Positions 14,684 through 25,144 of a stretch of 26,134 nucleotides of DNA are shown piece by piece. The number at the start of each line of letters is the position of its first letter. The first letter of the stretch is position 1. The position numbers were made by a program, and so were the translations under genes. The notes under the pieces were generated by a model. The model saw only the letters and a list, made by a program, of their open reading frames with translations. It searched no databases and was not told the origin of the DNA. The DNA comes from a virus, in UHGV virus genome UHGV-1624389; one strand, written 5' to 3'.

Positions 14684-15034
14684 TCACTTTAGCCGTTCAC
14701 GGGCCGTCTTCGCCTTATGACACGGCCAGCACAGACTCTGCAGATTATTGTCGGCCTCAGTGCCGCCATGTGCTTTAGGGATGATGTGGTCAACGGTTTT
14801 CGCCTCACGCACCACACCGGCACGCAGACATAACTGACACAGGCCCTTGTCACGCTTCAGTACACGTTCACGGATAGCATCCCATTTCGAACCGTAGCCG
14901 CGCTGATGACGGGATTGTCCTGGCTTGTATTGCTTCCAGCCTTCGCTTTTGTGGCTTTCGCAGTAGCCTGACGGGTCTGTGGTGGTATGGCGGCAGCCAC
15001 GAACACGGCAGGCTTTTGGGATTCGTGGGGGCAT
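14684..15034 (-). CDS. HNH endonuclease (terminase-associated)
   Basis: 116 aa with Cys pairs and a DHIIPKAHGG...N...CWPCH motif, placed just upstream of terS. Confidence 0.85.
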   Translation of the reverse strand: MPPRIPKACRVRGCRHTTTDPSGYCESHKSEGWKQYKPGQSRHQRGYGSKWDAIRERVLKRDKGLCQLCLRAGVVREAKTVDHIIPKAHGGTEADNNLQSLCWPCHKAKTARERLK

Positions 15035-15060
15035 AAATATATTCCTGTTCTTTGTCCAGA

Positions 15061-15333
15061 TTATTTGCCTGCTGCCAGCAAAGCGTTATGGCGCATCTCG
15101 ATACTTCGAATCCCCGCTTTGTCAATATTGCATTGTCCCAACGCTGACAACAGACTCACATTCAACTCCAGACTGGCACCATACGTCAGCGGATTGGGTA
15201 TAAACGGTACAGGAGTATCAGAAGTCAGGCTGGCTGGCAGTGGTGCCACCGGAGCGCTCACGTAAACCGTCCGCGAATTTCCGCAACCTGTCAGCAGCGG
15301 CAGCAGGCACAGGACGTGAAGCACAATCATCAT
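15061..15333 (-). CDS. Outer-membrane spanin lipoprotein (Rz1-like)
   Basis: Starts at the internal Met MMIVLHVLCLLPLLTGC (lipobox LLTGC), begins inside Rz in another frame and extends past the Rz stop. Pro-rich mature part. Confidence 0.65.
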   Translation of the reverse strand: MMIVLHVLCLLPLLTGCGNSRTVYVSAPVAPLPASLTSDTPVPFIPNPLTYGASLELNVSLLSALGQCNIDKAGIRSIEMRHNALLAAGK

Positions 15334-15610
15334 CCGCAACAGCCACTTTGATATCTTCCTGGGTTCTCTGTGACTCCAGTGCGATCTGCTGTTTTGCATG
15401 CTGGTTAGCCTCTATAACTGTATTGATGATTTGCAGTGATTGCAGAACGTTACGGGTAATGGCAGTTGCTGATTCAGCATTTCGTACAGCCTCATCAGCA
15501 CGCTCCTTTTCGTGCTGATATTTGCTGTAGTAATGCCCGGTAGACCAGATGAAGGAACCAATGACGGTAACAAAGAAGGCAACAATAACCAGCTTATATC
15601 TCAGCTTCAT
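15218..15610 (-). CDS. Inner-membrane spanin (Rz-like)
   Basis: 130 aa with an N-terminal TM helix (LVIVAFFVTVIGSFIW) and a coiled-coil-like periplasmic domain, directly after the endolysin. Confidence 0.7.
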   Translation of the reverse strand: MKLRYKLVIVAFFVTVIGSFIWSTGHYYSKYQHEKERADEAVRNAESATAITRNVLQSLQIINTVIEANQHAKQQIALESQRTQEDIKVAVADDDCASRPVPAAAADRLRKFADGLRERSGGTTASQPDF

Positions 15611-16070
15611 TTACTTCCCCACCAGCCTCTTTAAATCGGGCAATCAGGTCGCCTATTTTATGTTCATACTGACCATAACCTGCACCAGGTAACGACGCCC
15701 AGATATTGCTGCAACGGTCGATTGCCTGACGAATATCACCGCGATCAATCATCGGTAAAGCGCCACGCTCCTTAATCTGCTGTAATGCCACTGAGTCCTG
15801 GCTTCTGGGAGAGAAGTCTTTCAGCCCAAGCTGCTTACGATAAGCATCCCACCAGCGTGAAAGAAGCTGATAGCGTCCAGCGGCTGTTGATTTAAGTTTT
15901 GGGTTTAGAGTGACAAGTTTACGAGGGTGATCGGAGTAATCAGTGAAGAGTTCACCACCGACAATAACATCATAACCGTGATTACGTGTCGGTTGTCGCC
16001 CGTTATCTGTTCCTTCTGACCAGGCCACCATATCCAGAAAAGCTTTACGCTGGGAATTTAGCACCTGCAT
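15594..16070 (-). CDS. R: Endolysin, lambda R-type lytic transglycosylase
   Basis: 158 aa, ...NQRKAFLDMVAWSEGTDNGRQPTRNHGYDVIVGGELFTDYSDHPRKLVTLNPKLKSTAAGRYQLLSRWWDAYRKQLGL..., which matches the lambda R sequence I remember along most of its length. Confidence 0.93.
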   Translation of the reverse strand: MQVLNSQRKAFLDMVAWSEGTDNGRQPTRNHGYDVIVGGELFTDYSDHPRKLVTLNPKLKSTAAGRYQLLSRWWDAYRKQLGLKDFSPRSQDSVALQQIKERGALPMIDRGDIRQAIDRCSNIWASLPGAGYGQYEHKIGDLIARFKEAGGEVNEAEI

Positions 16071-16073
16071 AAA

Positions 16074-16400
16074 TTACTCCTTAGAACCACCAAACTTATT
16101 ACCGATTACTCTCATTGCAGCCCCACGAATAGCATCGACCCCGATCAGCCCAACGCCACCACCAATGGCAACAGAAAGAGATTTAGGCCATCCGACATAC
16201 TCAAGAGCGGATGCAAAAGTCAGCGTCAGAGCACCACAGAGCAAAATCTCGAGCGTTTTTCGTTTCCAGCCACCACCACCGCCAAAATAGGCAATGCGCA
16301 AGCCAGCCATAACGATCGACATAATCACTGCGCCCAGCGGTGTGTCTCCACGCCACCAGCTCTGGAACAACTCCAGCCAGGTATTTGGGTTATGAGGCAT
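16074..16400 (-). CDS. S: Holin (lambda S family, three TM helices)
   Basis: 108 aa with three hydrophobic segments and a GAVIMSIVMAGLRIAYFGGG stretch that resembles lambda S (GAILAFAMAYLRGRYNGG) from memory. Sits immediately upstream of R. Confidence 0.8.
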   Translation of the reverse strand: MPHNPNTWLELFQSWWRGDTPLGAVIMSIVMAGLRIAYFGGGGGWKRKTLEILLCGALTLTFASALEYVGWPKSLSVAIGGGVGLIGVDAIRGAAMRVIGNKFGGSKE

Positions 16401-16544
16401 TTGTAGTTATCTCTCACCTCGCAATACAGGAGGTGCAAATTGAGGGAACATCATGTACCGCAAATCAGAAGCGGAAACGTAAAAGAAGTCGAGCCAATGG
16501 ATAAGTACCAGATAGACCAAGCCCAACGAATACCAAGGCCTAGA

Positions 16545-16575
16545 AATGACAAAACCCGCTCGACGGCGGGTTTAA
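16545..16575 (-). terminator. Intrinsic terminator upstream of the lysis cassette (tR'-like candidate)
   Basis: On the minus strand: AAACCCGC, spacer, GCGGGTTT, followed by TTTTGTCATTTCT (stem arms at 16552-16559 and 16566-16573). Confidence 0.5.
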
Positions 16576-16618
16576 GCTGTGTGGCGAAGTAACCACTCTT
16601 AACACGATACAATAATTT

Positions 16619-16647
16619 TTGCGTACGCGTTAGCGCTTTTGTATATT
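16619..16647 (+). promoter_or_regulatory. Candidate sigma-70 promoter for the plus-strand two-gene insert
   Basis: TTGCGT (16619-16624), 17-bp spacer, TATATT (16642-16647), about 35 bp upstream of the ATG at 16681. Confidence 0.35.
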
Positions 16648-16680
16648 CAGCTTAATCCTATGTATTTATGGAAAAATAAG

Positions 16681-17712
16681 ATGAGCAAGCGTGAAATCAA
16701 AACTAAAAAAATAATCTATAAAGAAGTCACAATGTCAGGTGTGTCAAAGACGCTCCAGTCGATGCTAATGGAGCTGCTCAAAAAACACACTAAAGCAGAT
16801 TCTCGCAAGGAAATGGTCAACCCAGGAGAGGAAGACTTATTCCGATTAATTAATAAACATGAAGAGTTCCAGGGAATGCTGTTTTGCCAGCTTGTTGCCT
16901 TCGAACCAGGCCATTCTCAACGCTATATACAGCTTAAAAATGATGCTGAATCTTATGAAATAAGATCCGTAACATCAGATGAACTTTCTAAAATGACTGT
17001 TGAAGAAGCTGAAGAAGCACGCACAGAGAGGGAACAGGTTGTGCGTGAGTTTATAGATTCAATTCTTTATTTCGGTGTATTTGGTAACAGCATCGTAGTA
17101 ATGCAATCCAGATCTCTTACAACAAGAGAACTTGAAACACATCTGAAATGGTTACTTGGCTCTTTAAGCAATTACTTAGGCGCAGAAAACATCTTAAAAG
17201 TTTCCGATAAGCCCAAAGAAGAGATCATTGAGGAAGTTCTAAAACGACCTGTAAAATCAGTTTCTATAGGTGCCCCTGTAACTGCCGTTAACGAATTTAG
17301 TCAAGGAAGCAAAAGCCCAGGCTGGGTTCCCGCAGGAACTGCCTCTGAACTCCTTAAAGCTATGTTAGCAGAGAAATGGGAAAGCTTCTTACGTAGTAGC
17401 AAGCTTGAAGATTGTCTTGATGACGCTAATCTTGAAGTAACGCTGAAAATCACATACAAGAGGAAAACTTCTGATTCAGGAGAAAGGATGTTAAGAAATC
17501 TTGTTGACGCTACCAGACACTACCCGGATGATGACGTCGTTGTTGAAATGGTTGGTGGGACGCGTTTAACTGGTAAAGAGATTCGTTTATGGAATACTGT
17601 TAAACTCACAACTTACAATAGCTTAATTGATGAACATGAACTATATGGCCAAATGCATGATTGGATGGTCGCTCTGATCAACAATGGAGAAATAGAAGAG
17701 ACCGATGAATAG
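16681..17712 (+). CDS. Insert gene A: soluble protein of unknown function, candidate sensor component
   Basis: Long ORF on the strand opposite to all flanking phage genes. The start is taken at MSKREIKTKK (16681) because the track's first Met at 16639 lies inside the putative promoter. About 343 aa, hydrophilic, no Walker A or nucleotidyltransferase GS...DxD motif seen. Visibly AT-rich. Confidence 0.7.
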   Translation: MSKREIKTKKIIYKEVTMSGVSKTLQSMLMELLKKHTKADSRKEMVNPGEEDLFRLINKHEEFQGMLFCQLVAFEPGHSQRYIQLKNDAESYEIRSVTSDELSKMTVEEAEEARTEREQVVREFIDSILYFGVFGNSIVVMQSRSLTTRELETHLKWLLGSLSNYLGAENILKVSDKPKEEIIEEVLKRPVKSVSIGAPVTAVNEFSQGSKSPGWVPAGTASELLKAMLAEKWESFLRSSKLEDCLDDANLEVTLKITYKRKTSDSGERMLRNLVDATRHYPDDDVVVEMVGGTRLTGKEIRLWNTVKLTTYNSLIDEHELYGQMHDWMVALINNGEIEETDE

Positions 17713-18244
17713 AGAGGCTGCTAAGTGCATATCCTACCAACAACCAAGTAGAGCATTCCACTTGGTTGTTGTAGTATTGCTTATGTTTACAGCCTGGTTT
17801 ATCGCCAATAAGTACATCATTTTAACATCCATTCCTTGGGGCGTATTAACTATCCTCATCTTACCAATTGCAAGTAGCGCAACCCTGTTTCATAAGTTAT
17901 CTGAAACCCAAAAAAACGTTGCTGAGGATTTATCTCGCAATGAACAAAGAAGGTTAACAAGGCTTATTAAAGAAAAAAGCCGGGCAACATTATTCATGCT
18001 TACGCTACAAATTTCGATAATAATTTTTGTGGCATTGATTAGCCTTGGCAATGAGTCCTCTTTTGTTCAACAGCACATTCATACTATAAGTAAATTCGTT
18101 GTTTGTGCTTTGGTTTTTTCACTATACTCATTAATCCCTGTTTTACTAGGAGTAAAGGAAGTTATTGATTTTGAAGGGTTAATAAAAACACGAAAAACAT
18201 TAAATAAGCGTAAAAAATCTGCATTATCCAAGCTTGGGAAGTAA
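17705..18244 (+). CDS. Insert gene B: four-TM small membrane protein, candidate effector
   Basis: 179 aa with four hydrophobic helices (HLVVVVLLMFTAWFIA, IPWGVLTILILPIASSATLF, LFMLTLQISIIIFVALISLG, FVVCALVFSLYSLIPVLLGV), a charged loop and a basic C-tail. Start overlaps gene A's stop (ATGAATAG), so the two are translationally coupled. Confidence 0.7.
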   Translation: MNREAAKCISYQQPSRAFHLVVVVLLMFTAWFIANKYIILTSIPWGVLTILILPIASSATLFHKLSETQKNVAEDLSRNEQRRLTRLIKEKSRATLFMLTLQISIIIFVALISLGNESSFVQQHIHTISKFVVCALVFSLYSLIPVLLGVKEVIDFEGLIKTRKTLNKRKKSALSKLGK

Positions 18245-18265
18245 TCCAAGCTTGGGTTAGCACTC

Positions 18266-18622
18266 TTAAACCATTCTCAGAACACCATCAATAAAACCTA
18301 AAGCAGTTTGCAATTCTTTTCTGATCGTACCATCTGAGCATTTCTGCTTCTTTGCAATTGTACGGAGCGAAACCCCAATAACAAAATGTGCGATTATCAG
18401 CTCATATTCTTCAGGCCTATATTTACGCAACCGAGCCACACAACTGTCTATCATAATGCCTTCGTCATCATCACACTGAATCCGGGACTTTTTGCCATGA
18501 GGTAAAAGCCCCTTGAAGCCAGCGGCTACCGGTTGCCAGTCCACTCCGCTATTGTCTGAAGCAGCCCAAGCTCCCCAACGATCCATCACTTCATACATAT
18601 CACGCATCAACTTTCTCCACAA
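18266..18622 (-). CDS. Q: Late-gene antiterminator Q (phage antitermination Q family)
   Basis: 118 aa: ...RWGAWAA...AAGFKGL...QCDDD...ARL.K...CSDG.I...LQ.A.G.I.G.L, a pattern matching remembered Q proteins of lambdoid/Stx-type phages. Sits upstream of the lysis cassette. Confidence 0.75.
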   Translation of the reverse strand: MWRKLMRDMYEVMDRWGAWAASDNSGVDWQPVAAGFKGLLPHGKKSRIQCDDDEGIMIDSCVARLRKYRPEEYELIIAHFVIGVSLRTIAKKQKCSDGTIRKELQTALGFIDGVLRMV

Positions 18623-18624
18623 AA

Positions 18625-19620
18625 TCAGGCCAGTACGCCTATTGCCAGCGCACGATCGATAAAACGAAATATCAGCTCCAACTGGGAGCCATACATCTCT
18701 TCAAATGCCACGGTATCCGCATGCAGCTCGTCGTGATGCTTTCTGCACAAAGGCAACACAAAGAGGTCATGCGCTTTTGTACCCATTCCCCCCTGACCGT
18801 GGCCTATCAGGTGGTGGGGATCATCAGCAAGCTTTCCACAACATGCACACGGCTGTGTCTTAACCCAGCGCGTGTACTTTTCATTAACCCAGCGGCGACG
18901 TTTTGGGCGTAACATAAAAGACTCCGGCGACTCCGGATCCACTTTCAGCGCCAGCACCTTTTTCGCTTTATCCTGGATAATGCTGGTGGCAGGAACCGAA
19001 GGAACAAGGTCACTCTCCCGGGTGACAGACGGCACAACAGGCTTCGGTAATCTCAGTGCCTTACGGGCTGCACTTTCCGGTAAGGCATCCGCCAGGTCAT
19101 TACGAACCAGCCACCAGCACAGTTCCGGCATTGTCACAACGTGACTGTCATCAAAACCGAGATCACGGCGCACAACAGACAACACCCAGCGGGCACAGTT
19201 ATCCGTTGCCATTGATTCCAGCCGTTCCGTGAACTGATCGCGCAGCTGGTTATCGCAGTGCCAGCACAGACGGATTGCGCCCGGAGCGTGTCGCATTGTG
19301 GTCATGTTCTCGCTGTGCCAGTCGGAATGAGGCCACTGGCAGCCTTTTTCACGAAGTAACCAGCTTTCAAGACATTCCACGCCACCAGCACGACGGATCA
19401 CAGCCTCATTGCGGAACACGGCCCGAACGGCAGGATCATCCGCCAGCGGTTGTGATGCCGCCGGAACGGCACCACTGGCGAAAGATGAATAACGTTCCGG
19501 CTCAGGCTCCAGCAGGACACGCCCCTGCATAAACAGGGGCATCAGCTCTGAACCTGGTCTGAACAATACGATCCCCATACGCGGGGCAATTTCAGGGGTC
19601 AGTAGTGCTCTCACGGTCAC
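18625..19620 (-). CDS. DUF968-type nin-region protein with C-terminal HNH-like Zn-finger motif
   Basis: 331 aa with C-terminal CACCGKLADDPHHLIGHGQGG...CRKHHDELH. The track's first residue is a GTG codon at 19620; an ATG 14 codons in (MGIVLF) is an alternative start. Confidence 0.65.
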   Translation of the reverse strand: MTVRALLTPEIAPRMGIVLFRPGSELMPLFMQGRVLLEPEPERYSSFASGAVPAASQPLADDPAVRAVFRNEAVIRRAGGVECLESWLLREKGCQWPHSDWHSENMTTMRHAPGAIRLCWHCDNQLRDQFTERLESMATDNCARWVLSVVRRDLGFDDSHVVTMPELCWWLVRNDLADALPESAARKALRLPKPVVPSVTRESDLVPSVPATSIIQDKAKKVLALKVDPESPESFMLRPKRRRWVNEKYTRWVKTQPCACCGKLADDPHHLIGHGQGGMGTKAHDLFVLPLCRKHHDELHADTVAFEEMYGSQLELIFRFIDRALAIGVLA

Positions 19621-19621
19621 C

Positions 19622-20419
19622 TCAATGAACGGTATCGAGCAGCTTTAACAGCTCAGGGAATCGGGATTCGAAGAAATGCGGCTGCGTCTCGCGCGGATTT
19701 GCGGGACTGGTGATGTTCTTGCCGAACATGCAGCCTTTCGCTGTCAGTGACCAGAATTTTTTGATGTTGTTAATCGCAGTACGGCTGTATCGTTCGCGCT
19801 GCTCGACGATCCCCAGCTTCACCATCTGGTGATATGCCTGATTAGCTGTCAGGCGGATACCATACTGCTTCAGCAGTGCACTCAGTGACAGCGTGGGGCG
19901 GCTTGAGCCATCAGGCGCGTCAGCAGGAGCATCAATGGCATAGCTCGGTGCCAGATTCGGTAAACCAACAGCCTCCTGGAGTTTCTGACAGGCACCAAGC
20001 ACTGATGAGTTAGACAGGTTTAACTCCCGGCGCATAAAGTCCAGCAGAATCACACCAGCCTGCATCTTGTCAGCAGCCTGCCCGGATAATTTTTCCGGTG
20101 CGCTGGTTACCATGTCGAAAGTACGGATCACCTTCAGATGGAATGACGGGCTGATCCACATTGCATAGGCATACACCAGTTCTTTGCAGACATACGTCCC
20201 CTGGTTATTTCCGCCACGAATAACGTTAACTGGCTCTATATTGACCGAGTTGCAAATCTGCAACTCGCTTATTAAACGTTCAGTTTGCTCATTGCGGAGC
20301 CAGAATGCAGGCTTATGCTTATCCAGAGAACCGGCAGCCCTGTGCAGATCGTTCAGGCTGTAACGCCCATAAGCATCACGACGAACTTCAATACCATCAA
20401 TGACCATCAGATTATTCAT
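19622..20419 (-). CDS. KilA-N domain protein (antirepressor-like)
   Basis: Start set at MNNLMVIDGIEV (ATG 20419..20417), preceded by AGGAG. N-terminal region ...YSLNDLHRAAG...KPAFWLRN... is typical of KilA-N domains. Confidence 0.7.
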   Translation of the reverse strand: MNNLMVIDGIEVRRDAYGRYSLNDLHRAAGSLDKHKPAFWLRNEQTERLISELQICNSVNIEPVNVIRGGNNQGTYVCKELVYAYAMWISPSFHLKVIRTFDMVTSAPEKLSGQAADKMQAGVILLDFMRRELNLSNSSVLGACQKLQEAVGLPNLAPSYAIDAPADAPDGSSRPTLSLSALLKQYGIRLTANQAYHQMVKLGIVEQRERYSRTAINNIKKFWSLTAKGCMFGKNITSPANPRETQPHFFESRFPELLKLLDTVH

Positions 20420-24469: not shown

Positions 24470-25144
24470 ATGAAAACAATCCATGACATCCGGCGGTCTA
24501 ACGCCAGAAAACTGAGAGATGGTGTTGGCGGGAATTCTTCCTTTGCCACTATGATTGATCGCGAGCCAACCCAGACCAGCAGGTTTATGGGAGATGGTGC
24601 TACTAAAAATATCGGTGACAGCATGGCACGACACATCGAAAAATGTTTCGACCTGCCTGTCGGATGGCTCGATCAAGAACACCAGACAACGAACATCACA
24701 AAAAAACCTGATGTTTCAATCACTAATAAACAAATCACATTAGTCCCTGTCATATCATGGGTACAGGCCGGAGCATGGAAAGAAGTTGGATATTCTGAGG
24801 TTGATTTGAGCACAGCAGAAACGTATCCCTGCCCTGTACCCTGTGGGGAAATGACTTATATCTTGCGGGTGATAGGTGATTCAATGATTGATGAGTACCG
24901 CCCGGGAGACATGATTTTTGTCGATCCTGAAGTACCTGCCTGCCACGGTGACGACGTTATTGCATTGATGCACGATACAGGCGAAACCACCTTCAAAAGG
25001 TTGATAGAAGATGGGACACAGCGTTATCTCAAAGCGTTAAACCCAAACTGGCCTGAGCCTTACATTAAGATCAACGGTAATTGCTCTATAATTGGTACAG
25101 TGATTTTCTCAGGAAAACCAAGAAGATACAAAATCAAAGCCTAA
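24470..25144 (+). CDS. cI: CI-like repressor (HTH plus S24 LexA-like autopeptidase domain)
   Basis: 224 aa with a C-terminal ...VIGDSMIDEYRPGDMIFVDP...TFKRL... segment (Ser in GDSM, Lys in FKRL) typical of the S24 fold. Divergent from cro. Confidence 0.85.
   Translation: MKTIHDIRRSNARKLRDGVGGNSSFATMIDREPTQTSRFMGDGATKNIGDSMARHIEKCFDLPVGWLDQEHQTTNITKKPDVSITNKQITLVPVISWVQAGAWKEVGYSEVDLSTAETYPCPVPCGEMTYILRVIGDSMIDEYRPGDMIFVDPEVPACHGDDVIALMHDTGETTFKRLIEDGTQRYLKALNPNWPEPYIKINGNCSIIGTVIFSGKPRRYKIKA

Follow-up and report, generated by a model that had tools for sequence, protein, structure and literature searches.

How does Q-dependent late transcription reach the lysis genes of a lambdoid phage when foreign genes lie between the antiterminator gene Q and the first late gene? 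The question is raised by UHGV virus genome UHGV-1624389, a stretch of 26,134 nucleotides that we refer to as the window, in which an antisense two-gene cassette separates Q from the holin gene S. The original prediction saw two possible routes: either the late promoter sits beside Q and Q-modified polymerase reads antisense through the cassette, or the promoter and the Q-binding site lie at 16580-16700 and overlap the cassette promoter. Here, we propose from a comparison of the window with relatives that lack the cassette, and from a survey of Q alleles and cargo at the same site, that the window probably carries an ordinary Q21-type late switch split by an accessory slot, with the Q site, the late promoter pR' and the terminator tR' at about 16541-16633, directly upstream of S. 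Polymerase would start at about 16597 on the minus strand and, without Q, would make an RNA of about 47-50 nt and stop at the hairpin 16573-16552; with Q bound at ACGCGTACGC (16621-16630), it would become resistant to termination and continue into S, R and the morphogenesis genes. As this late start lies downstream of the cassette, Q-modified polymerase would never traverse the cassette, which is probably transcribed rightward (about 16654-18283) from TTGCGT-17 bp-TATATT (16619-16647) and probably ends transcription at its own hairpin, 18226-18257, beside the Q stop.

Results

Predicted late-promoter block and empty slots

A BLAST search with 15900-18900 returned phages and Escherichia coli prophages that are related to the window in Q, in the region upstream of S or in both, and differ in between. 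In phage 1720a-02, TTAGCGCGGTCCGCAAAAAGTATGTCAGTATGTTAAGAGTGGTTACTTCGCCACACAGCTTAAACCCGCCGCGAGCGGGTTTTTTT comes 8 nt after the Q stop. The same block of about 90 bp is found in the window at 16551-16640, beside S instead of Q (CTAACGCGTACGCAAAAATTATTGTATCGTGTTAAGAGTGGTTACTTCGCCACACAGCTTAAACCCGCCGTCGAGCGGGTTTTGT) and about 1.63 kb from the Q stop. The arrangement of 1720a-02 recurs in 25 other loci, in which TTAG(C/T)GCGGTCCGCAAAAA...TGTTAAGAGTGGTTACTTCGCCACACAGCTTAAACCCGCC-loop-GGCGGGTTTT follows about 8 nt after the Q stop. Because the block adjoins Q in these empty-slot phages, comparison indicates that the cassette was inserted between Q and the pR'/tR' unit, and not between that unit and the late genes. 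The 26 empty-slot relatives have the promoter block immediately after Q; the window does not. The conserved 24-mer of the block occurs there once, at 16581-16604, with 0 chance matches expected, and minus-strand promoter-like hits inside the cassette are at chance level (7 versus 5.4 expected). The original prediction was exact about the distance between the stop codons of Q (18266) and of the cassette (18244), which is 21 bp (18245-18265), and this gap holds the cassette's own 3' hairpin. The single-copy block, the occupied gap and the empty-slot relatives all count against the first of its two routes, in which the late promoter lies beside Q.

The Stx2a phages 1447 and WGPS2 have the same Q, cassette and block as the window and diverge from it right after the stem, at 16551. 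In these phages this position is the beginning of the stx late region, and the recombination junction lies directly after the terminator stem.

The elements that we assign to the block are as follows.

16597-16633, minus strand: predicted late promoter pR', with a -35-like CTAACG at 16633-16628, a run of five A at 16620-16616 and a -10-like TATCGT at 16609-16604
16621-16630: candidate Q-binding element ACGCGTACGC; its core, the palindrome GCGTACGC, occupies 16621-16628, and the element falls between the two pR' hexamers, -35-like and -10-like
16574-16596, minus strand: initially transcribed leader, with the 5' RNA hairpin GUGGU-UACUUC-GCCAC (16596-16581)
16541-16573, minus strand: predicted terminator tR', stem-loop AAACCCGC-CGTCGA-GCGGGTTT at 16573-16552, followed by TGTCATTTCT / UUUUGUCAUUUCU

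The hexamer directly before GTTAAGAG varies between loci (TATCGT, TAATCT, TATTGT, TACTGT, TAATGT, TACTCT, TATGCT, TATCCT, TATTAT and CAGTAT). Positions 2 (A) and 6 (T) are the same in all variants, and position 1 is T in all except CAGTAT, while positions 3-5 vary. This constancy is the pattern of a -10 element. The -35-like CTAACG lies 18 bp upstream of it, with A/T-rich sequence beyond, and the late transcript is predicted to start at A16597 (range 16597-16601). We also considered TATTGT (16614-16609) as the -10 element, which would move TAAGAG to +2, where phage 21 has its pause element. We rejected it as a solution for all loci, as only some of the variants keep a -10-like hexamer at that place. 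Two candidates for a pause element can be named: TAAGAG/AAGAGT (16601-16595), which resembles TAAGCT of phage 21 and AACGAT of lambda but coincides in part with the predicted start instead of occupying +1 to +7, and TACTTC (16591-16586), in which the final T is missing.

The leader AAGAGTGGTTACTTCGC (16581-16601, minus strand) resembles the initially transcribed region of lambda pR', AACGATGGGTTAATTCGC (L129:788-805). The lambda region holds a pause element together with a -35-like element, and GGTTACTTCGC of the window resembles lambda GGGTTAATTCGC. The likeness exists although the two Q families are unrelated; it could be due to chance or to a shared constraint at the level of the polymerase.

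The minus-strand hairpin with its T-run at 16552-16573, 152 bp from the start of S at 16400, had been described correctly before. The hairpin and T-run would come about 25-50 nt after the predicted start of transcription. The RNA between pR' and tR' is predicted to be about 47-50 nt long and to end at about 16548-16551; a predicted 57-nt RNA comprising the 5' hairpin and the terminator folds at -18.8 kcal/mol (z = -3.1). A scan for terminators finds 3 terminator-like sites in 3 kb against 2.7 expected, so that the hairpin alone is not above chance; we consider it real because it is conserved across relatives. The same leader and stem are present in at least 120 viral contigs, fetched from IMG/VR with an exact 28-nt block pattern, and BLAST with a 111-nt block matches 358 phage records. 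The stem is nearly constant across loci, while the loops vary (GTCGA, GCGA, ATTGA, GCCTG, GCCGG and others).

Prophage DLP12 of Escherichia coli K-12, which was found independently of the pattern, differs in one base of the 28 nt of the block, a C-to-U change that retains a G-U pair. Its block lies at about 577,195-577,280 of NC_000913.3 (L130), between nmpC and essD, and we predict from it an unannotated RNA of about 48 nt on the plus strand, from near 577,229 to near 577,276. Start sites or 3' ends for the DLP12 block were sought in K-12 and O157 start-site and 3'-end tables and were not found there. A full-text literature search with the leader sequence returned no paper, and an Rfam scan of 15000-20000 no family match. 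Two known RNAs were weighed as relatives of the block RNA and rejected: StxS, which accompanies a 144-aa Q and a 258-nt leader, and svsR of prophage NC-SV, which is unrelated and sits at the 3' end of cI.

Even the empty-slot loci (L001, L128 and others) have TTGCGG-18 bp-TACTTT on the strand opposite Q, overlapping the Q stop codon. These hexamers might act as a weak promoter directed antisense into Q, reminiscent of paQ, which is annotated within the Q gene of phage 21 (L132:1305-1337). CII-type sites (TTGYN6TTGY) for a paQ-like promoter were absent from Q and from the block, and the 5 in the window as a whole are at chance level (5.8 expected).

Candidate Q-binding element and gene Q

Gene Q and its variable end are placed as follows.

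18266-18607, minus strand: gene Q, Q21-family late antiterminator (PF06530, E 1.2e-45 over 112 of 118 profile positions; phrog_79)
18266-18283, minus strand: tail of Q, VLRMV*, the last five codons and the stop, specific to the cargo

From its likely ATG at 18607, Q is 113 aa long, and the open reading frame (ORF) extends to a TTG at 18622. PF06530 has been assigned to the Q21 family (Yin et al. 2022, PMC9388147). The direct match of the window Q to the solved Q21 protein is weak (E 1e-3).

Does the block contain a site that belongs to this Q? Our survey comprises 107 loci, among the matches listed, that have a PF06530-type Q upstream of the block. Sorted by the C-terminal (helix-turn-helix) sequence of Q, they fall into four classes, each with a motif of its own at the place of the candidate element.

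Q class ...KCSDGTIRKELQ... (window type): motif GCGTACGC, 37 of 37 loci
Q class ...KKDEKLIRIEIQ...: motif GCGGTCCGC, 66 of 66 loci
Q class ...CSDGYIGKKLQ... (DLP12 type): motif TAC(n)CGTA, 3 of 3 loci
Q class ...ISHTQILKRLQ...: motif GGAATTCC, 1 of 1 locus

The motif tracks the Q allele in all 107 loci with zero exceptions, across 12 cargo clusters in the window class and 9 clusters plus empty sites in the second. The sequence 3' of the motif, from the A-run or the -10 element onward, is common to the Q classes. Recombination therefore reaches the edge of the motif, yet the motif stays with its Q, and this pairing is what a specificity pair of Q and its binding element predicts. Its position between -35 and -10 is also that of the Q-binding elements of phage 21 and lambda. 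We therefore regard the motif, from these comparisons, as a candidate Q-binding element, to which Q would bind. Which residues of Q might read it is given as a lead only, as the MAFFT alignment of the Q classes with Q21 is unreliable in the C-terminal DNA-binding part, where Q21 has a long extra loop.

The end of Q varies with the cargo. Twelve cargo types of the same Q class have twelve different C-terminal tails: beyond a conserved GF(I/V)(D/E)G, the final 5-12 residues differ for every cargo type, which places the left junction of the cargo module inside Q, near 18283 in the window. Each cargo swap thus rewrites the C-terminal tail of the antiterminator, and in some loci (SfII, L038) the cargo terminator hairpin overlaps the final Q codons.

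Predicted cargo promoter

On the opposite strand, the block may also provide the promoter of the cargo.

16619-16654, plus strand: predicted cargo promoter, with -35 TTGCGT at 16619-16624, a 17-bp spacer, -10 TATATT at 16642-16647 and a start near A16654

The predicted 5' untranslated region would be about 27 nt long, up to the ATG at 16681, which lies 33 nt after TATATT. Among the distinct flank types of the window Q class, 14 of 15 have TAnnnT after TTGCGT, at 17 bp in 12 and at 18 bp in 2; examples are TATATT (window), TATAAT, TAAAAT, TAGAAT, TAAGAT, TAAACT, TATTTT, TATGCT and TATCCT. Averaged over the types, the -10 score has a sharp maximum at a spacer of 17 (+1.6 bits), and other offsets give 0 to -4.5. 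In 9 of 12 cargo types the start codon lies 31-44 nt past the hexamer, which leaves no room for a separate promoter. Taken together, these hexamer comparisons suggest that the cargo is likely driven by a resident rightward promoter, back-to-back with pR'. The signal TTGCGT-TAnnnT is absent from the GCGGTCCGC class, where the regions upstream of the cargo are often longer.

The two predicted promoters are interleaved: the cargo -35 sits inside the candidate Q-binding element, and the pR' -35 sits inside the spacer of the cargo promoter. With such overlap, two polymerases could not sit at the two promoters simultaneously, and Q on its site would mask the cargo -35. The second route of the original prediction, which put the late promoter and the Q site within 16580-16700, in overlap with the promoter of the cassette, thus gains comparative support from the hexamers, the Q-linked motif and the opposite-strand promoter.

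The cassette and the cargo slot

The cassette of the window consists of two genes and a 3' hairpin.

16681-17712, plus strand: gene A, a 343-aa soluble protein (phrog_3482, a family without assigned function); the ORF opens at 16639 and the start ATG is at 16681
17705-18244, plus strand: gene B, a 179-aa predicted membrane protein (phrog_16807, a family without assigned function)
18226-18257, both strands: perfect 12-bp hairpin formed by two direct copies of ATCCAAGCTTGGG, between the convergent Q and cassette genes; it takes in the stop codon of the cassette and 13 of the 21 bp in the gap

The annotation of Stx2a_1447 gives the identical start for gene A (ATG 16681), and in Stx2a phages 1447 and WGPS2 the cassette lies upstream of the stx2 late promoter. 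Gene A has no Pfam or PADLOC match; gene B has no PADLOC match, and its Pfam match is only sub-threshold. A kinship with the PDC-M53 proteins of SfII was considered and rejected, since no similarity was found. Elsewhere the same slot holds Kiwa, PDC-M53 and other pairs of a soluble and a membrane protein, which makes the cassette a candidate for an uncharacterised defence system. Its length is about 1.6 kb, somewhat below the 1.8 kb first estimated.

The predicted folding energy of the hairpin at 18226-18257 is -21.8 kcal/mol (z -4.2) for the plus strand and -22.5 kcal/mol for the minus strand. It is followed by a U-tract on neither strand, which makes its efficiency as a terminator doubtful. 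Each copy of ATCCAAGCTTGGG contains a HindIII site.

How general is the slot? Twenty-six of the 107 loci are empty, with the block abutting the Q stop, and 81 carry cargo of 0.48-3.7 kb. The occupied slots form 24 cargo sequence clusters, all with a G+C content of 0.29-0.42. The main ORFs run opposite to Q in at least 21 of the 24; of the remaining clusters, two are ambiguous (one with competing ORFs, one with no long ORF) and one is mostly free of ORFs. PADLOC matches among the cargo are Kiwa, PDC-M53 (two clusters), PDC-S20, PDC-S33, PDC-S42 and PDC-S60, a PDC-M68A-like HNH protein, and an OLD/HEC-04-like ATPase with a C5 methylase. PADLOC recognised nothing in over half of the 24 clusters, among them that of the window. 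E. coli TUM14664 carries KwaA/KwaB (Kiwa) in the slot, phage SfII a two-gene PDC-M53 candidate defence system that is also antisense, some Stx1a phages three antisense genes, and phages PA-2 and 434 and K-12 prophage DLP12 the Lc/NmpC porin gene. Most modules bring a strong hairpin of their own, unrelated in sequence, directly after the Q stop. The site thus combines many unrelated gene sets and empty sites between conserved flanks with low-G+C cargo that includes anti-phage systems, as hotspots do, and by these comparisons it is a much-reused site for interchangeable low-GC modules, mostly in antisense orientation.

Two cargo proteins may be mentioned for their features. The 338-aa protein of L107 has RelA/SpoT-like motifs by eye and a PDC-S33 match, and the 1050-aa protein of L053 has an N-terminal region like that of nuclease effectors and a PDC-S60 match.

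Surrounding genes

Nearly all genes of the 26-kb window are on the minus strand, in the order immunity region, replication, nin-type and late genes. Those that bear on the direction of transcription are listed here.

24470-25144, plus strand: CI-like repressor, the only plus-strand gene besides the two cassette genes
18625-19620: DUF968 protein
16074-16400, minus strand: holin S, the first late gene (PF05106, E 6.6e-25; the RefSeq annotation of identical loci agrees)
15594-16070: endolysin, after holin S

The early side also includes RusA and a KilA-N protein; beyond the endolysin follow spanins, an HNH protein, terminase and head genes. By sequence motifs, an HNH-type ORF lies at 14684-15034 (minus strand), directly upstream of the terminase genes, as in HK97/SfV-like phages. 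With the CI-like repressor as the sole other plus-strand gene, the direction of early transcription is fixed towards Q. The cassette and the late operon do not converge: both diverge from the promoter region, and what is convergent with the cassette is early transcription through Q. Early transcription that runs past Q would be the one way for convergent transcription to affect the cassette in lytic growth. Early transcripts that are halted neither at the hairpin nor by Rho would meet 1.6 kb of untranslated cassette antisense sequence, with 323 C and 285 G.

Relation to known systems

The best-understood counterpart is phage 21, the Q21 cassette of which has been solved by cryo-electron microscopy (Shi 2019, PMC6606751; Yin 2019, bioRxiv 651190). 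In the OL657228 annotation, 6 nt separate its Q stop from the -35 TTGACA, the Q-binding elements ATTGAGCA and AATGAGCA lie between the -35 and the -10 (AACACT), the pause element TAAGCT is at +2 to +7, and the terminator ends at +50. Phage 21 and the window block are alike in the Q family (PF06530), in the order and dimensions of the predicted elements, in the short leader, in a predicted terminator about 50 nt from the start and in the lysis genes that come next, and the Q stop lies 6-8 nt from the -35 both in phage 21 and in the empty-slot relatives. In contrast, the two share no DNA sequence similarity, the window Q shares about 24% identity with Q21 and is shorter by about 50 aa, and the candidate site GCGTACGC differs from the two (A/T)TGAGCA repeats of phage 21. 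Moreover, the window has 1.6 kb of antisense cargo between Q and the promoter, whereas phage 21 has none.

The Lc/NmpC porin loci (PA-2, 434 and DLP12 with quuD - nmpC - essD) have the same slot, the antisense orientation and the conserved block upstream of the holin. They differ from the window in that the porin cargo comes with about 375 bp of regulatory sequence, together with annotated CRP sites, whereas the two-gene cassette abuts the block, and DLP12 also has another Q class and motif (TACGTACGTA). Beyond nmpC lies the DLP12 lysis operon, for which control by Q has been reported (cited in PMC7918800).

The slot also invites comparison with fixed positions for accessory genes elsewhere. 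Defence hotspots in P2 and P4 prophages were reportedly described by Rousset in 2022. Like these hotspots and phi80 taiEcA, the slot is a fixed position for self-contained modules of low G+C that are unrelated to one another, and several of the modules are defence systems, known or candidate. Unlike them, it lies upstream of the late promoter, so that Q-dependent transcription would not cross it, and a resident promoter is apparent in one Q class. For phi80, an antisense defence gene, taiEcA, has been proposed within the Q-controlled operon (PMC11364771).

StxS, the pR'-tR' RNA of Stx phages with a 144-aa Q, has 258 nt before and 74 nt after processing (Sy et al. 2020, PMC7547250). The predicted RNA of the window would likewise be a short constitutive pR' RNA that ends at tR', a by-product of antitermination, and it differs from StxS in its Q allele, its length and its unrelated sequence; it is not known to act in trans.

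Sequences of individual occupied slots date back to the 1980s (lc of PA-2, nmpC of DLP12), and Q control in DLP12 and the structural mechanism of Q21 are also known already. A limited literature search found no account of the slot as a general cargo or defence hotspot, of the Q-allele/motif pairs, or of a shared divergent promoter.

Discussion

The position of the block, its adjacency to Q in empty-slot relatives and the motif that stays with each Q allele together point to an ordinary Q21-type switch in which the slot separates Q from its target. Late transcription then need not cross the cassette, and neither an unusual route of antitermination nor a collision between Q-modified polymerase and cassette transcription is required.

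Several observations weigh against this reading. A consensus promoter scan called neither of the two predicted promoters, and its hits within the cassette and Q did not exceed chance; the -35-like hexamer of pR' has 3 of 6 consensus matches and needs a spacer of 18-19 bp, and TTGCGT of the cargo promoter likewise has 3 of 6 matches. With the start at 16597, there is no convincing -10-like pause element at +1 to +10, and the U-tract of tR' in the window, UUUUGUCAUUUCU, is weaker than those of the relatives. The candidate site can be read as a palindrome or as a repeat with 6-bp spacing, in contrast to the 8-bp-spaced direct repeats of phage 21. As no cargo cluster is common to two Q classes, Q, cargo and motif may simply be co-inherited through linkage, and the invariance of the 28 nt among the contigs fetched with them holds by construction. 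Public tables and a full-text search gave no mapped start, 3' end or Q-DNA contact for the block.

Where else could late transcription start? In lambda and phage 21, pR' directly follows Q, and phi80 taiEcA offers a proposed precedent for an antisense defence gene within a Q-controlled operon. By analogy, a promoter beside Q could let Q-modified polymerase read the whole cassette antisense, with the hairpin 16552-16573 as the last terminator that it ignores. We consider this very improbable: 13 of the 21 bp in the gap belong to the cassette hairpin, the window has no second copy of the block and only chance-level promoter hits on the minus strand of the cassette, and the block that abuts Q in the empty-slot relatives is the very one at 16551-16640, which holds the Q-allele-specific motif. 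Somewhat less remote, though still improbable, is that the block at 16541-16640 mainly makes a constitutive, StxS-like regulatory RNA, with the motif serving as another operator or merely overlapping a -35, while the late genes are expressed by early read-through. RNAs from pR'-tR' can be Hfq-binding regulators, as StxS is (PMC7547250), the predicted RNA, like many small RNAs, joins a 5' hairpin to a terminator, the block shows no clear pause element, and the motif does overlap the -35 of the opposite-strand promoter. However, the motif tracks Q in every surveyed locus although the flanks are common to the classes, the layout agrees with that of the phage 21 cassette in each element, and Rfam has no match; a regulatory role of the RNA would, as for StxS, add to the role in antitermination and not replace it.

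The rightward promoter is more exposed to an alternative than the late promoter is. TTGCGT-17 bp-TAnnnT might be a remnant of flank ancestry or an A/T-rich UP-like element for pR', each cassette then having a promoter of its own. The T-rich spacer between block and hexamer looks like decayed common sequence, the hexamer falls within the UP-element region of pR' (-45 to -50), the other Q class lacks the signal, and Kiwa, porin and some other cargo have long upstream regions. We nevertheless hold this account to be unlikely, if by no means negligible. AT-richness alone would not give a score peak at a single spacer in which T1, A2 and T6 are kept and positions 3-5 are free, and the short distance from hexamer to start codon in most cargo types leaves no space for another promoter.

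Could the same motif act in both directions? If, in the Q class of the window, it is at once the loading site of Q for leftward transcription and the -35 of the rightward cargo promoter, accumulation of Q and a productive pR' would occlude the cassette promoter, through Q itself or through polymerase at pR'. We offer this two-way switch as a tentative idea, and a rather doubtful one; that cassette expression is tied to the lytic switch at all, as first suggested, is likewise a hypothesis. If the two-way switch were true, the prophage would silence its own cargo, often defence of the abortive-infection type, on committing to lysis, and the slot would be a plug-in expression site with built-in timing of self-immunity.

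In conclusion, the combination of a Q of the Q21 family with the block TGTTAAGAGTGGTTACTTCGCCAC and its hairpin behind it may serve as a landmark for accessory and defence genes in lambdoid prophages. Cargo is present in about three quarters of the loci sampled, and over half of its types are without known function. The four natural pairs of Q allele and motif could be used to probe DNA specificity in a Q family in which only phage 21 has been solved. Finally, as the block and, in some Stx2a phages, also the cassette lie upstream of stx2, altered firing of pR' or competition from the cargo promoter could affect toxin output.

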